Source of the DNA: Bdellovibrionales bacterium | Lineage (GTDB): Bacteria > Bdellovibrionota > Bdellovibrionia > Bdellovibrionales > UBA1609 | DNA: 64,000 bases | Assembly: GCA_965116155.1 (NCBI GenBank) | Contig: OZ220488.1 | Span: 1,496,318 to 1,560,317 of the forward strand | Direction: 5' to 3' | Shown here: positions 10,791 through 48,783 of the stretch, piece by piece | Layout: each line of letters begins with the position of its first letter | Position numbering within the stretch: the stretch's first letter is position 1 | Notes under the pieces: model-generated | Seen by the model: only the letters and a program-made list of their open reading frames with translations | Databases searched by the model: none | Told to the model about the DNA's origin: nothing | Program-made: the position numbers and the translations under genes

Positions 10791-10797
10791 AGCGCTA

Positions 10798-10881
10798 GCC
10801 AAAACACCTCTTGTATGAAGCGCAGCCTGGTACAGCACCTTTGGTACACCAGGCAAGCGAAAAGGCAAGAGGTGTTTTGGC
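10798..10881. repeat. 84-nt three-tier hairpin (family H)
   Basis: Perfect 16-bp outer arms gccaaaacacctcttg / caagaggtgttttggc. Relatives at 37123-37205, 57047-57137 and inside each 239-bp unit at 47071-47787. Confidence 0.85.
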
Positions 10882-10900
10882 GGTCTATGCAGCCTCCGCA

Positions 10901-11039
10901 ACTGGCATATACTCTTGGGCCTCGGGTTAGCGCACAACCTTGGGTTCAATTAGCTGCCAATCCACCCAGTATCCTGCGTCACCAGATCTCATCCAATTAA
11001 GACTGGCGCGCTAAAATCGGCCCAAGAGTATATGCCAGT
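10901..11039. mobile_element. MITE-like 139-bp element with perfect 21-bp terminal inverted repeats
   Basis: actggcatatactcttgggcc (10901-10921) is the exact reverse complement of ggcccaagagtatatgccagt (11019-11039). No coding capacity. Confidence 0.5.
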
Positions 11040-11110
11040 CACAATGGCTGATTAGCAAGATAGTGCCAATTGCATGTTTGGTGCACCAAACAACCTCAAG
11101 GCCCTGCATG

Positions 11111-11440
11111 CGTAAGCATTAGAGTGCTAGTAAAATTCTCTGGGATTAAGCGACGCTATTATCGCAGCCTTCTGGAAGAAGGCGTCCGCGATAATAGCAA
11201 GCGTAGCTGAGAATTTTGCGGCCTATAAGGCTACTATAAGCCCGTACCCGCAAGTACGATTTCAGGTAAACTGAGGCAAACGCCGCCTGCGGCCGGGCTT
11301 TATTGGTCGCAAAAAAACCAGGCGTGACCTAAGCTGCCAGATTGGCTTAACGCCATGAACAACCTCTTGTATGAAGCTACTATGACCCTGTAGCGCAGGC
11401 CCGTAGCGACCACACCTACGTCAAAAAAGCCTTGTGTATA
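11111..11440. repeat. mosaic repeat block: module A + hairpin B + reverse-orientation copy of the 239-bp unit
   Basis: cgtaagcattagagtgctag, then hairpin B (11131-11219). After that, aagcccgtacccgcaagt..ccgggctttattg..caggcgtgacctaagctgccagatt..cttaacgccatg matches the reverse complement of the 47071-47787 unit. Confidence 0.8.
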
Positions 11441-28346: not shown

Positions 28347-28356
28347 ATTAATTTAC

Positions 28357-28476
28357 GTTGGTATCGTGCTACTCTCGACACAGGCGTGAGCCTGCACTAC
28401 CATCACCGCAGGTGAGCTTAACTGCTGAGTTCGGAATGGGTTCAGGTGTACCCTCACCGCTATAAACACCAACAGG
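28357..28476 (-). rRNA. rrf: 5S ribosomal RNA, not adjacent to a 23S gene
   Basis: - strand reads cctgttggtgtttatagcggtgagggtacacctgaacccattccgaactcagcagttaagctcacctgcggtgatggtagtgcaggctcacgcctgtgtcgagagtagcacgataccaacg. It has CCGAACTCAG, GATGGTAGT and GAGAGTAG blocks, and helix I ttggt/accaa. Ends are +/- 3 nt. Confidence 0.9.
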
Positions 28477-31689: not shown

Positions 31690-31987
31690 CTCTCTTTAAA
31701 AGCACGAGGCTTTGACGAGAGTGTCGCGGCCTTGGGCGTTGACGGGAGTGTGGTAAATCGAGTTTGCTCAGTTTGTCTTAGATTAAGCGCACTCGGACAC
31801 AGGCGTGGTTATTTGCCTAGGCCAACATTAGCCCCATTTCAGGTGCGCCGCTTTAACTCGATTTACAGGGCCATAAAAGCCTTATAGGTCGCAAAACAAA
31901 CTCGGGCCTTTCGTTTGTCCCAAGAATAGACGCGCCTGAGCTGCCCTTGGGACGGCACTTACTGGCCAAGTTTGTTTTACTAGCGCT
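31690..31987. repeat. mosaic repeat block (reverse module C, module F, module E, reverse module A)
   Basis: gcacgaggctttgacgagagtgtcgcggccttgg (31703-31737). gtgcgccgctttaactcgatttacagggccataaa (31843-31877) is also at 36947. ttataggtcgcaaaacaaactcgggcctttcgtttgtcccaag...cccttggga is also at 46985-47060. ctagcgctctaa lies at the right end. Confidence 0.8.
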
Positions 31988-36946: not shown

Positions 36947-37204
36947 GTGCGCCGCTTTAACTCGATTTACAGGGCCATAAATAGCTGTCTAGCGCGCAAT
37001 ATTACCTTGAAGCCTACGTTTGCCATCTTGGCTAATGCCCTATGGGCAGCCAAGATGGCTGCACTCTCAGGTTCAAGGGTAACATTGCTGGCGCTTTTAT
37101 GCTTACGCCAGCTGCATAGACCGCCAAAACACCTTGTTATTCCGCTTGCCTGCAGCACATAAAGGTGCTTAAGCAGGCGGCACTTCATACAAGAGGTGTT
37201 TTGG
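36947..37204. repeat. mosaic repeat block (module F, family-D hairpin element, family-H hairpin)
   Basis: gtgcgccgctttaactcgatttacagggccataaa, then the D element 36983-37108 (agctgtctagcgcgcaa ... gctggcgcttttatgcttacgc), then the H hairpin 37123-37205. Confidence 0.85.
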
Positions 37205-38554
37205 CTAGTCTGTAATTTTCTTCCATGGGGCAACGACACTAAGTAAAAGCATGCCAGGCAAGGCCATAAAAAAGCACAAAATAAAAAACCTCGTCCACCC
37301 GAGCCCACCGAAGTTGCCGATCCAGCTAAAAGCTTGCCAAAAGCTCTCAGGAGCCAGCTTAGACCAGTCCCACCCATCTACCAAAAAGCCCGTAGACATA
37401 CTGGCGGCATTGCGCGGCAAGGCCATAATGCTGGTAAGCAGCGCCATTTGCGTGGCAGTGAAGTTTTTGTTTGTACTGCGCGCCATAAAGGCCAACAGAG
37501 CCGCAGAGCCCAAGCCCGCAGCAAAATACTCCCCCATAACCACAACACCCAAAACCCACAACTGCGGCACGGTGCTCAGCCATGCAAAACCCAAAATGGT
37601 CAGCATTTGCACAAAGCCAAACACCCACAAGGATTTATTAATCCCCAGGCGCAGCATCATAAGCCCCCCCACAAAACCGCCCGAAAGCACACTAGCCACG
37701 CTGACCAGTTTTACAATGCTGCCGATATGGGTCTTAGTAAAACCCATATCCAGAAAAAAAGGCGTCTGCAGGGCCGTTGCCATGTTGTCACCCAGTTTAT
37801 AAAGCATAATAAAAAACAAAACCCCCAATGCCCCCCCAAAAGCTCCGCGGGCCTGGCCGTGCTTGTGCCCAAAAAAATCCCTAAAAGGCTCCACAATAGC
37901 CGCCAAAAGGCTGCCTGGCACCTTTACCCCTTGGGTGATTTCTTTAATCAACAAACTATGCAGCACACCTATGCCCATAAAAAGAGCCATCACCATATGC
38001 GTTTGAGACCAGCTGATGTGGTCTGCTAGCACTAGCCCCAGCCCGCCGGGCACAAAGCCTGCTACTCTATAGGCATTGGCATAAAAGCTGTTCCCCAAGC
38101 CGAGCTCGTTGTCTGGTAGCAGCTCGCGCCTGTAAGCATCGAGGGCAATGTCCTGTATGGCCGACCAGAGGGTCACTAAGGTCACAGCTGCGGCGATAAA
38201 ACGTATATCTCCTGTGGGGTCAAGGCTTGCGCAGCCCAGCATGCCGGCAATGCAGCCCATTTGCGCTATAAGCATCCAGCTGCGTCTGCGCCCTAGAGGC
38301 GAAAGCCTATACCGATCGCATAGGGGCGCAATTAAAAACTTAAAACTCCAAAAAATTCCTAAGCCCGTTACGAGCGAAATCGCCTGCAAACTTGCGCCCT
38401 CATCCCGCATCCAGGCAGGTACAAACTGATAAAAATAATAAAGCGGCAAGCCAGCCGAAAAGCCATTAACAGCACACACCAGCATGCGGCGTAGCGATTG
38501 GGGCTCGAGGTGGAGTTTTTTTAAAAGATTTTGGCCCATTTTTTCCCAATACAA
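37205..38554 (-). CDS. ampG: AmpG-family MFS muropeptide permease
   Basis: 449 aa with about 12-14 hydrophobic segments. N-terminal GFSAGLPLYY..... and LGRRRSWML motifs resemble AmpG/SLC33-type MFS proteins. Confidence 0.65.
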   Translation of the reverse strand: MYWEKMGQNLLKKLHLEPQSLRRMLVCAVNGFSAGLPLYYFYQFVPAWMRDEGASLQAISLVTGLGIFWSFKFLIAPLCDRYRLSPLGRRRSWMLIAQMGCIAGMLGCASLDPTGDIRFIAAAVTLVTLWSAIQDIALDAYRRELLPDNELGLGNSFYANAYRVAGFVPGGLGLVLADHISWSQTHMVMALFMGIGVLHSLLIKEITQGVKVPGSLLAAIVEPFRDFFGHKHGQARGAFGGALGVLFFIMLYKLGDNMATALQTPFFLDMGFTKTHIGSIVKLVSVASVLSGGFVGGLMMLRLGINKSLWVFGFVQMLTILGFAWLSTVPQLWVLGVVVMGEYFAAGLGSAALLAFMARSTNKNFTATQMALLTSIMALPRNAASMSTGFLVDGWDWSKLAPESFWQAFSWIGNFGGLGWTRFFILCFFMALPGMLLLSVVAPWKKITD

Positions 38555-45714: not shown

Positions 45715-46134
45715 GTGGAGCCTATAAAGCTAAACCTGTCGGCATTAGAGAAAACCATTAAATCACTGGAGCGCTCTTTAGAGCTTTGTGATGAGTTTAA
45801 GGGTACAAAGAAGCTGCAAGAGGCTTTGCGAGAGAGTGTTATTCAGTCGTTTGAGGTGTGTTATGAGGTTGCGCGCAGATTAATGTTTCGGTACCTAAAA
45901 CAGGCCACAGATGAGCGCGTGGATGAGATGGCGGTGCATGATGTGTTTAGGCTGGGGCATAGGAGTGGAATTTTGTCTCATGTATCTAGCTGGTTTGAGT
46001 ATAGAAAAAAAAGAAACCTAACCAGCCATATTTATAATGCCGATATAGCGGAAGAGGTTTTTTGTGCAGCGGCGCCTTTTTTAAAGGATGCTAAGTTTTT
46101 GTTAAAAAAATTAGAGGAAAAGATTGAAGCTTGA
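45715..46134 (+). CDS. hepT: HI0074-family nucleotidyltransferase substrate-binding (HEPN) protein, putative type VII toxin
   Basis: 139 aa. LS.LEK.IKSLE..LE start and the helical pattern typical of HI0074-like proteins; R....H-like RNLTSH near the C-terminus. Paired with an MNT gene. Confidence 0.7.
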   Translation: MEPIKLNLSALEKTIKSLERSLELCDEFKGTKKLQEALRESVIQSFEVCYEVARRLMFRYLKQATDERVDEMAVHDVFRLGHRSGILSHVSSWFEYRKKRNLTSHIYNADIAEEVFCAAAPFLKDAKFLLKKLEEKIEA

Positions 46135-46423
46135 TCTAGCGCCGCGCTATGAGGAGGCGGTTAAAAAAATTTTTCTTCGGCACTTGCCCCATGCTAAGGT
46201 GTGGGCTTTTGGCTCTCGGGTGAGTGGGTCTGCTGTAGAGACTTCCGATTTGGACCTTGTAATTGTTGCGGACGAAAAAACAAACTTTAAAGCGCTTAGC
46301 TTGTTGCAGGTGGATTTTGAGGAGTCCGACATCCCCTTTAAGGTGGATGTTTTGGACTGGCAGCGGCTTTCTGCAGACTTTCAAAAAGTCATCAAAAACC
46401 AATACATTGTTTTTATAAGTTAG
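46124..46423 (+). CDS. mntA: minimal nucleotidyltransferase (MNT), putative antitoxin
   Basis: 99 aa. GSRVSGSAVETSDLDLVIV (G-S ... D-x-D polymerase-beta-type motif). TTG start overlaps the HEPN gene by 11 nt. Confidence 0.75.
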   Translation: MKLDLAPRYEEAVKKIFLRHLPHAKVWAFGSRVSGSAVETSDLDLVIVADEKTNFKALSLLQVDFEESDIPFKVDVLDWQRLSADFQKVIKNQYIVFIS

Positions 46424-46835
46424 TGCGTAAGCATTAGAGCGCTAGGAAAATGCCCTGGGATAAAGCGCAGTCTCTAGCGCAACCCCCTTTAGGGGGTGTC
46501 CGCGATAGAGACAAGTGTCCCGCAGGGCATTTTCCGACCTATGAAGCTACTATGGCCCTGCGGCTTTGGATGTCCTAGGTCCAAAGCCGCGACACTTCCG
46601 TCAAAGTTCCGTGCGTTGAGTAAACACAAATTAGAGCGCTAGCCTAATATTCTGGGCAAAGCGCAGTCTCCCTGATAGCGCCTGAAAGGCGCGGCCATCA
46701 GGGAGATAAGCGCCCCACAGAATATTAGGCGGCCTATAAGGGATCTATGGCCCTGCGGCTTTGGATGTCCTAGGTCCAAAGCCGCGACACTTCCGTCAAA
46801 GTTCCGTGCGTTGAGTAAACACAAATTAGAGCGCT
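46424..46835. repeat. two tandem A-B-C repeat units
   Basis: Module C plus A (ctatggccctgcggctttggatgtcctaggtccaaagccgcgacacttccgtcaaagttccgtgcgttgagtaaacacaaattagagcgctag) is identical in both units. Hairpin B differs almost completely (ggaaaatgccctggga... versus cctaatattctgggc...). Confidence 0.9.
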
Positions 46836-46959
46836 AGTAAAATAAAATGGGGCAATAAGAGCCAACCTCAGAACAGCCTCTTTAAGACTGGCATATGTCC
46901 TGTGGACGATTCTGGGGCGCCTTGCTTGAGCTGCAGGGGTGTGGTGATAGCAGGAGCTC

Positions 46960-47810
46960 AGGTAGACGGATGGCTTGTAGTAGCTTTATAGGCCGCAAAA
47001 CAAACTCGGGCCTTTCGTTTGTCCCAAGGATAGACGCGCCTGAGCTGCCCTTGGGACTGCACTTTCTGGCAAGAGGTGTCCATGGCGTTAAGTTAATCTG
47101 GCAGCTTAGGTCACGCCTTGGTTTATCGCGATCAATAAAGCCCGGACGCAGGCGACATTGTTTTTCTCGGCTTATATAAATCGCACTTGCGGGTACGGGC
47201 TTAGACCTAACCTGCAGGGCCATAGACAGCTTCATAGACCGCCAAAACACCTCTTGGCTTTCCGCTTGCCTGGAGCACCCAAGGGTGCTCATCAGGCTGC
47301 GCTTCCAGCAAGAGGTGTCCATGGCGTTAAGTTAATCTGGCAGCTTAGGTCATGCCTTGGTTTATCGCGATCAATAAAGCCCGGACGCAGGCGACATTGT
47401 TTTTCTCGGCTTATATAAATCGCACTTGCGGGTACGGGCTTAGACCTAACCTGCAGGGCCATAGACAGCTTCATAGACCGCCAAAACACCTCTTGGCTTT
47501 CCGCTTGCCTGGAGCACCCAAGGGTGCTCATCAGGCTGCGCTTCCAGCAAGAGGTGTCCATGGCGTTAAGTTAATCTGGCAGCTTAGGTCACGCCTTGGT
47601 TTATCGCGATCAATAAAGCCCGGACGCAGGCGACATTGTTTTTCTCGGCTTATATAAATCGCACTTGCGGGTACGGGCTTAGACCTAACCTGCAGGGCCA
47701 TAGACAGCTTCATAGACCGCCAAAACACCTCTTGGCTTTCCGCTTGCCTGGAGCACCCAAGGGTGCTCATCAGGCTGCGCTTCCAGCAAGAGGTGTTTTG
47801 GCTAGTCTGT
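46960..47810. repeat. module E followed by a 239-bp tandem repeat x3 (47071-47787)
   Basis: aagaggtgtc recurs at 47071, 47310 and 47549, with aagaggtgtt at 47788, giving a 239-bp period. Units are near-identical (for example tcacgcc / tcatgcc / tcacgcc). Each ends in a family-H hairpin. Confidence 0.95.
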
Positions 47811-47821
47811 AACTTTAACTT

Positions 47822-47898
<77 letters not shown>

Positions 47899-47913
47899 CT
47901 TCGTATAATAATT

Positions 47914-48783
47914 CTACTTAAGGCCCACAATATAAGCCACCCAAGAATCCACCTCCTCCTGCGTAGCTTCGCATGCAGCAAAATCTCCACTCCCCTCGCC
48001 CTCTGGCGTAGTACCTTCCCAGTACACCAAGCAGCGTTTGAACCCAACCTCTAAAAGAATATCCTTCAGCTCACGCATTCCCCAAAGGCGCCAATCGTAC
48101 TCGAACACCTTTTCATACTTGCGCCCCTTGAAGGGCCGAAAATGTATCCAAAACTTCCCCTCTTGATTAATGGGGTCATAAAAATCCTGATCCCAATAAT
48201 AGGTGAACTTATTGCCATGGCGCGTAGACTCCTCCACTGCACCCATAACATCTCTACCACCAAAACAGTCTAAAACAAAAATGCCATCCCTCTTTAAGCG
48301 CCGCAAGCTAGAGGCAAAATAAGCCCGCATTTGAGCGCGCTCCTTTAGCACAAAATAAGAAAAATTCTGCGCCACCACAATATCTAAACCCCCAGGTAGG
48401 TCTTGATCTAACACACTTGCTCTGCACAATTGCAGGCGTGATTTTTCGTCCTTGCTTAGCTCGGCTCCATAAACCCGTTGCCCATAATCCAAAGGCTCCT
48501 GGTCCATGTCCACACCCACAGCTCTTCTATGAGCGCCTGCCTTTATCCACTCGCAACTAATTGCAAAAGTCCCGCAAAAATCCTCCCCCAATCGTTGGGC
48601 AGGTTTATTGCGCAGGTCTTTATAAGCCTGATCCAAAAACTCCACATCCCTCTCCGGCGATTGCACAGCTTCACGATAATAAGCGTACTTATCAAAAACT
48701 TTGCCCAAACCCGATGTGCCTTTACGCCGCCGAACCATGGCCTGTTGTATTAACACACTCAGAACCTTAATGCCATGCATCAA
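47914..48783 (-). CDS. class I SAM-dependent methyltransferase
   Basis: 289 aa. LGEDFCGTFAIS (motif I-like) followed by VGVDMD (acidic motif II). Substrate unknown. Confidence 0.6.
   Translation of the reverse strand: MMHGIKVLSVLIQQAMVRRRKGTSGLGKVFDKYAYYREAVQSPERDVEFLDQAYKDLRNKPAQRLGEDFCGTFAISCEWIKAGAHRRAVGVDMDQEPLDYGQRVYGAELSKDEKSRLQLCRASVLDQDLPGGLDIVVAQNFSYFVLKERAQMRAYFASSLRRLKRDGIFVLDCFGGRDVMGAVEESTRHGNKFTYYWDQDFYDPINQEGKFWIHFRPFKGRKYEKVFEYDWRLWGMRELKDILLEVGFKRCLVYWEGTTPEGEGSGDFAACEATQEEVDSWVAYIVGLK

Follow-up and report, generated by a model that had tools for sequence, protein, structure and literature searches.

A tandem array beside a tRNA-Ile gene, probably a recent local amplification of a composite palindromic repeat

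How does a near-perfect tandem array of 239-nt units come to lie directly beside a solitary tRNA-Ile gene, and is the tRNA involved in its origin? The array is located in a window of 64,000 nt, the whole stretch of DNA analyzed here, which covers positions 1496318-1560317 of a Bdellovibrionales genome assembled as a single contig (1.61 Mb, 49% GC, 93.6% complete). All features referred to below by coordinates in this window are collected in Table 1.

TRF defined the array as 3.0 copies of a 239-nt period with 99% matches and a score of 1449. Units 1 (47071-47309) and 3 (47549-47787) are identical by direct comparison, and divergence across the array amounts to one difference in 717 nt, a single C>T change, in agreement with a preliminary description of this locus as a near-perfect 239-bp array of three units with single-base differences only. 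That description closed the array at 47787; the periodicity, however, continues 2 nt to the left of 47071 and 9 nt to the right of 47787, up to 47796, and the last hairpin extends to 47812. The distance of 34 nt it gave between its array end and tRNA-Ile(GAT) is arithmetically correct. Likewise, its exclusion of a CRISPR stands, the units being contiguous and identical without spacers, and the open reading frames running over the array were rightly regarded as artefacts, as the period is not divisible by 3 and a Pfam search with five ORFs crossing the array returned sub-threshold noise only, with no match near the threshold.

The copy number of three comes from one single-contig assembly. Considering that near-identical 239-nt units are hard to handle with short reads, the true locus might hold one or two units, with the repeat having been inflated by the assembler or polisher. 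We regard this as very improbable, since the same contig of 1.61 Mb carries ~10 further non-coding arrays with differing periods and copy numbers, a SNP is private to the middle unit, and the borders are coherent, consisting of a chimeric hairpin on the left and a complete terminal hairpin on the right.

Table 1. Features of the array, its modules, and its surroundings (positions in the 64,000-nt window).
Feature	Position	Strand	Remarks
H half of split copy	10795-10893	-	87% identity
Diverged A half of split copy	11237-11368	-	83% identity
Solitary H copy with complete T1 terminus	37109-37219	+	Repeat search and genome blastn
Two ~195-nt units of the ~200-copy T2-terminus family	46424-46851	+	Repeat search, copy counts
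~14-copy module TGGCATATGTCCTGTGG...	46886-46946	+	Also right after tRNA-Pro(TGG), tRNA-Arg(TCG), and tRNA-Ala(TGC)
Truncated hairpin of another subfamily	46972-47068	+	Paralog at 31878-31966; chimeric left border of the array
Tandem array, 3 x 239 nt plus 11-nt overhang	47069-47796	+	Unit starts 47071, 47310, and 47549; TRF, repeat search, unit-by-unit comparison
Left copy of the bounding 11-nt direct repeat GCAAGAGGTGT	47069-47079	+	Putative crossover or slippage site
Module A/P of unit 1	47080-47231	+	Recurs at +239 and +478; palindromic core
Internal H hairpin of unit 1	47232-47318	+	Recurs at +239; 3' arm cut at ...GGTGT
Sole difference within the array	47353	+	T in unit 2; C at 47114 and 47592
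Terminal H hairpin, the only complete one	47710-47812	+	22-bp outer stem, -60.2 kcal/mol; T1 terminus GGCTAGTCTGTAA towards the tRNA
Right copy of the 11-nt direct repeat GCAAGAGGTGT	47786-47796	+	Within the 3' arm of the terminal hairpin
Spacer of 9 nt between repeat terminus and tRNA 3' end	47813-47821		Sequence reading
tRNA-Ile(GAT), CCA encoded	47822-47898	-	ARAGORN and Rfam; apart from any rRNA gene

The 239-nt unit combines two palindromic modules, A/P and H, each of them dispersed in the genome. Module A/P (~150 nt, ~45 copies in the genome) occupies unit positions ~1-175 and begins with YCATRGCGTTAAG. Its core is closed by a long-range stem (TCTGGCAG..GGTC paired with GACC..CTGCAGG), which makes A a nested palindrome. 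The hairpin H (~100 nt, ~50 genome copies) takes up unit positions ~157-239 and the terminus, and is built from an outer stem (AGAC..GCCAAAACACC paired with GGTGTTTTGGC..GTCT), a conserved asymmetric internal loop, and an apical stem. As A and H are both palindromic, the array represents two palindromic units alternating with short linkers. The internal H hairpins are closed by CGCCA paired with TGGCG from the next A head (-49.8 kcal/mol), so that in these units the head (CCATGGCG...) has kept its pairing with the 5' end of H; the A head CCATGGCGTTAAG itself looks like a decayed H terminus.

One of the hairpins named in the preliminary description, aagcccggac...gtacgggctt, does form in the array, but across the family its 5' side is not maintained; the pairings conserved across the family are the H hairpin and the long-range stem of module A. 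In an alignment of 25 H copies, 7 of 25 pairs show compensatory changes on both sides. The suggested folding of the unit gave structures far better than those of shuffled sequences, with z-scores of -4.1 on the plus strand and -6.0 in the sense of the tRNA. The two sides of the H internal loop, CTTTCCGCTTGCC and GGCTGCGCTTC (47255-47268 and 47293-47305), are conserved above the level of the stems and not complementary to each other; the loop could be a protein-binding site.

A blastn search with one unit against the 1.61-Mb genome returned 93 HSPs in two classes, A and H, which bears out the earlier statement that the unit is also dispersed. The modules occur joined, separate, or split by other inserted modules. 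A and H reach ~45-60 copies and the family with the T2 terminus ~200, these copies being intergenic; sequence with at least 10 copies makes up 7.2% of the genome, coding ankyrin repeats included. Of the diverged single copy formerly placed at about 11230-11400, the A half was found at that position, whereas the H half, aligned at 10817-10893, lies elsewhere, with ~343 nt of other modules in between (Table 1). This nesting in other copies (split copy 10795-11368), together with the long TIR-like arms of H and its non-coding, multi-copy nature, resembles MITEs. Unlike these, H copies are found at gene ends in one polarity, and no TSD was seen at the borders examined.

Tandem arrangement is a recurrent state of these repeats. 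The ~10 other non-coding arrays have 2-3.2 copies with periods of 120-244 nt, and they are positioned 3' of gene ends, often between convergent genes. Identity is 97-100% inside arrays versus 82-91% between loci; sister arrays of the A-H composite elsewhere in the genome are internally 100% identical, compared with 82-86% between loci. One of them, at genome position 1005k, comprises 2.1 copies of 239 nt at 100% identity. A perfect 390 x 2.0 tandem duplication at genome positions 939708-940489 overlaps minus-strand ORFs of at least 110 aa and may be coding, unlike the other long-period arrays.

Direct repeats mediate tandem duplication via replication slippage or unequal sister-chromatid exchange, a process general in bacteria. 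Based on the architecture of the repeat and its junctions, we consider the array to be probably the result of a recent local amplification of the composite repeat by slippage or unequal recombination between direct repeats built into it. A piece resembling the H 3' arm and ending in AGGTGT (consensus GCTGCGCTTCATACAAGAGGTGT) precedes ~40 of the ~45 A copies, whatever hairpin comes next. The internal junction of the array reads GGTGT/CCATGG (a slash marks the junction), and the corresponding GGTGT/YCATRGCG is found upstream of solitary A copies, with ~44 alignments crossing it. The junction thus pre-exists in solitary A copies and was not created by array formation. With the arm piece before A and an H hairpin of this type after it, the composite carries a built-in direct repeat ~239 nt apart. 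The array shares with slippage duplications in general the short bounding direct repeat, the original leftmost border, and the hybrid internal junctions. The difference is that the direct repeat is part of the family architecture and not accidental, and as a consequence a period of 239-244 nt recurs at independent loci.

The borders of the array are informative in this respect. To the left of 47069 the sequence is ACTGCACTTTCTG, versus GCTGCGCTTCCA at the internal junctions. In the truncated hairpin that forms this border, GCAAGAGGTGT replaces the end of the 3' arm and leaves the 5' arm GCAAAACAAACTC without a partner; the match between the arm of this hairpin and the internal junctions is confined to GCAAGAGGTGT. 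A comparable situation is seen in the 1005k array, whose internal junction is CTCAAGTTTT/CCATAG while its terminal hairpin retains CTCAAGGTGTTTTGG: hairpin sequence on the left is joined to the original left border on the right. An array with a 236-nt period, formed by the related A2 module, has two mismatches, both of them in the leftmost arm (b'). Such chimeras at the leftmost b', at 1005k, and in the 236-nt array are predicted by exchange or slippage between direct repeats, and not by site-specific cleavage at GGTGT^.

The proposed course of events would start from the architecture b' - A - H5'arm-loop-b', with its two b' copies ~239 nt apart. Slippage or unequal recombination between these copies would duplicate the intervening 239 nt, and at the tRNA-Ile array this exchange would have taken place within the 11 nt GCAAGAGGTGT. 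The resulting 239 nt of perfect homology would permit further unequal exchange, raising the copy number from one to two to three, and the single C>T change would have followed after amplification. The position beside the tRNA would follow from the T1 terminus (GGCTAGTCT), which always faces gene ends, tRNA genes included.

Two observations count against slippage. A homology of 11 nt is short for the first duplication step. Furthermore, at some "single-copy" loci the hairpin arm is present a second time upstream of A, as a perfect, locus-specific copy of 26-47 nt, which simple slippage explains only if these loci are collapsed arrays or have become homogenized. We read them as collapsed arrays or as products of gene conversion; enzyme-driven copying would be the more direct explanation. 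The idea of a universal long target duplication was dropped, as the own-arm copies flank only A+H(B-type) composites and not A combined with other hairpins. We also rejected the possibility that a ready-made (A+H)n block had entered the upstream hairpin within its 3' arm, because the array is followed by a T1 terminus matching H and not by the rest of that T2-type hairpin.

Enzyme-driven formation would mean that a RAYT-like or other single-strand nuclease or transposase cuts the foot of the hairpin (GGTGT^) and that further units are added, either through strand transfer or through rolling-circle copying of an excised unit, a model with a precedent in BIME-2 arrays (PMC3333891). It is consistent with the junction position, identical to the nucleotide in four independent arrays, and with H stems that keep pairing through both-sided changes. 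The variable-length, locus-specific partial hairpins at the gene-distal end and the constant gene-proximal terminus are moreover like one-ended or rolling-circle products. We nevertheless judge this scenario possible but unlikely. A six-frame search of the whole genome (93.6% complete) for RAYT/Y1 transposases (PF01797) gave zero matches, while 6 of 14 control genomes were positive, and the junction already lies upstream of nearly all solitary A copies. The chimeric junction at 1005k is, in addition, not predicted by a GGTGT^ cut of the terminal hairpin. A variant of this idea assumes RAYT-independent machinery that recognizes the hairpin foot GGTGT^TTTGGCTAG and deposits units at transcript 3' ends, of protein and tRNA genes alike, where rolling-circle-like copying would at times exceed a single unit length. 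If true, it would account for the strict polarity, for a constant terminus on the gene-proximal side, and for the locus-specific partial hairpin of variable length on the distal side; we rate it as unlikely. Local amplification through the built-in direct repeats remains our preferred reading of the array itself.

tRNA 3' ends are classic att sites. The preliminary description had hinted at such an integration site here, and a HEPN-MNT toxin-antitoxin pair and an unannotated 252-aa gene on the 3' side of the tRNA would fit a remnant of an integrative element, with the array as cargo or scar. The evidence makes this barely credible. In accordance with the earlier remark that no integrase is nearby, none was found in nine neighboring genes tested (40.7-51.5 kb), seven of which are identifiable (an amidohydrolase, lnt, HEPN, MNT, a weak methyltransferase-like protein, a secretin, and an ATPase). 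Nor is any att-like partial duplicate of tRNA-Ile present anywhere in the genome, so neither the integrase (among these nine genes) nor the direct repeat of the tRNA 3' end that characterize a tRNA-targeted integrative element was detected. The convergent spacer at 46424-47812 (1.4 kb), between the MNT stop and the tRNA, is made up to ~98% of multi-copy repeat modules according to per-base copy counts, which range from 14 to >200; the exception is ~25 nt at 46947-46971, which are nearly unique with 2-3 other matches.

The same termini are moreover found far beyond this tRNA. A repeat terminus of type T1 (AGACTAGCC) or T2 (AGAGCGCTAGC), in gene sense and 5-22 nt past the 3' end, follows 14 of the 34 tRNA genes, compared with 0.004 termini per tRNA expected by chance. 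Upstream of tRNAs, a terminus occurs at two genes only, both times in the opposite orientation. The closest paralog of the unit (91%) adjoins tRNA-Gly(GCC). Protein genes behave alike: 37% of T1 and 45% of T2 termini are located on or just after stops of frames with 120 codons or more, compared with 2.9% for positions drawn at random, and the TAG within the repeat terminus is often used as the ORF stop. With 14 of 34 tRNAs capped and 37-45% of termini placed at ORF stops, the adjacency to tRNA-Ile reflects a general habit of the family; it is normal behavior of this repeat and not integration.

The surroundings of the array provide several further observations. The MNT stop occupies 46421-46423, and the TGCGTAAGCATTAGAGCGCTAG box of the T2 family starts on the next base. 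The convergent units HEPN-MNT (45715-46423) and tRNA-Ile differ in the type of terminus that caps them. The ~14-copy module (TGGCATATRTYCTGYGG...GGGCYGGYGCGC) follows tRNA-Pro(TGG), tRNA-Arg(TCG), and tRNA-Ala(TGC) (genome positions 569622, 949689, and 1462752, respectively) within ~10 nt, and also closes several A-containing composites. In the sense of the tRNA, 47810-47821 read AAGTTA AAGTTA, six nucleotides repeated in tandem and overlapping with the terminus; at tRNA-Gly(GCC) and tRNA-Ser(GCT), the same repeat terminus is preceded by a single GTTAAAG. Directly upstream of tRNA-Ile, and like it on the minus strand, is a 289-aa ORF (47914-48783) with only sub-threshold methyltransferase-like Pfam matches; the two may be co-transcribed.

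tRNA-Ile and tRNA-Ala are the two tRNAs normally found in the 16S-23S spacer. In this genome, tRNA-Ala(TGC) (genome positions 1462752-1462827) and tRNA-Ile(GAT) stand alone, 80 kb apart. A 5S gene is located at 28356-28473 in the window, the 16S gene at ~235.7-237.2 kb and the 23S gene at ~729 kb of the genome; judging from primer-motif matches only, each rRNA gene seems to be present once and to be fully unlinked from the others.

Given their placement, the repeats might also be maintained for what they do. The array may function as a 3'-end hairpin, a terminator, or an insulator separating the convergent MNT gene from the tRNA. In its stronger form, this model assigns the array a selected cis-acting RNA or DNA function: the stacked hairpins would terminate the tRNA-Ile transcript or protect its 3' trailer and would insulate the convergent transcription units from each other, with the copy number under selection. 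The very stable structure predicted in the tRNA sense and the polar placement at 3' ends point in this direction, as do terminator-like hairpins with T-rich tails, predicted on the minus strand once per unit (8 sites versus 2.9 expected). REPs in E. coli are reported to act on 3'UTRs (bioRxiv 10.64898/2026.03.23.713779). Against the model, the terminator-like stems have only 5 bp, H is devoid of a U-tail, and termination needs no three identical copies. Rfam provided no family for the repeat either: over 46300-48000, both at the gathering threshold and at E of at most 1, the tRNA alone matches, and all other scores are far below gathering. A selected cis function would seem quite improbable, and this reading does not exclude amplification by slippage.

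The 239-nt unit was not found in any of 40 relatives, 24 of them belonging to the same family. A search for a conserved 22-nt motif of A in 185,579 species genomes and in JGI metagenome contigs yielded four isolated chance 22-mer matches with no flanking similarity, and the unique junction of array and tRNA had no match in metagenome contigs. Among the genomes and metagenomes searched, the mosaic family is thus restricted to this genome.

In respect to known systems, we file the repeat as a new, lineage-specific family of REP/BIME/REPIN-like kind and not as a member of REP/BIME. Like the latter, the A, H, and T2 repeats are high-copy, extragenic, imperfect palindromes, and they form tandem mosaic clusters conserved within the locus, here (A/P - H) x 3. 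The assignment fails on the 20-40-nt units with a GTAG-type head and on the cognate RAYT: the units measure 84-125 nt, the conserved H ends are CATAGACCGCC and GGCTAGTCTGTAA instead of GTAG, and the PF01797 search of the genome gave no match. With regard to REPINs, H is a long hairpin with both-sided changes in 7 of 25 pairs; its arms, their stem broken by the conserved asymmetric internal loop, are not recognizable as REPs.

Tandem near-identical REPINs with their flanks are known from 16 loci of P. fluorescens SBW25, the largest just above 700 bp (Bertels & Rainey 2011, PMC3116915). These clusters resemble the present ones in being tandem hairpin units with flanks at many loci (16 versus ~11 here) and in size (>700 bp versus 728 bp). 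They differ in that SBW25 REPINs are doublets of ~20-25 nt REPs with a cognate RAYT, whereas the palindromes here measure 84-125 nt and come in two kinds, their internal loops are conserved, their termini bear stop codons, and no RAYT was found. BIME-2 and atypical BIMEs of E. coli are likewise arranged in tandem and conserved within a locus, their number varying between strains (Ton-Hoang et al. 2012, PMC3333891). For BIMEs, spread followed by local amplification has been proposed, with TnpA-REP or rolling-circle routes under discussion (PMC3333891). In terms of the Gilson/Bachellier classification, the likeness to BIME-2 and atypical BIMEs comprises two kinds of palindromic units with conserved linkers, tandem mosaics, and conservation inside the locus. 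A BIME, however, is a ~100-nt unit of 35-40-nt REPs with a GTAG head, in contrast to 239 nt and no GTAG-tagged REP here; strict polarity towards gene 3' ends and the lack of a RAYT in the PF01797 search further set the present family apart.

Taken alone, the array is ordinary, yet it shows that the repeat family is still changing locally, and it serves as a worked example of how a copy of a hairpin arm on either side of a module turns it into a mosaic prone to tandem amplification. The wider family is of greater interest, with its polar, stop-supplying termini, its capping of 14 out of 34 tRNAs, and no RAYT found in the PF01797 search. The arrays are potentially useful as strain-typing and copy-number markers. 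Should an enzyme take part, this genome would lend itself to the search for a new REP-type mobilization system; if there is none, it would show how far recombination alone can reach in building BIME-like mosaics.
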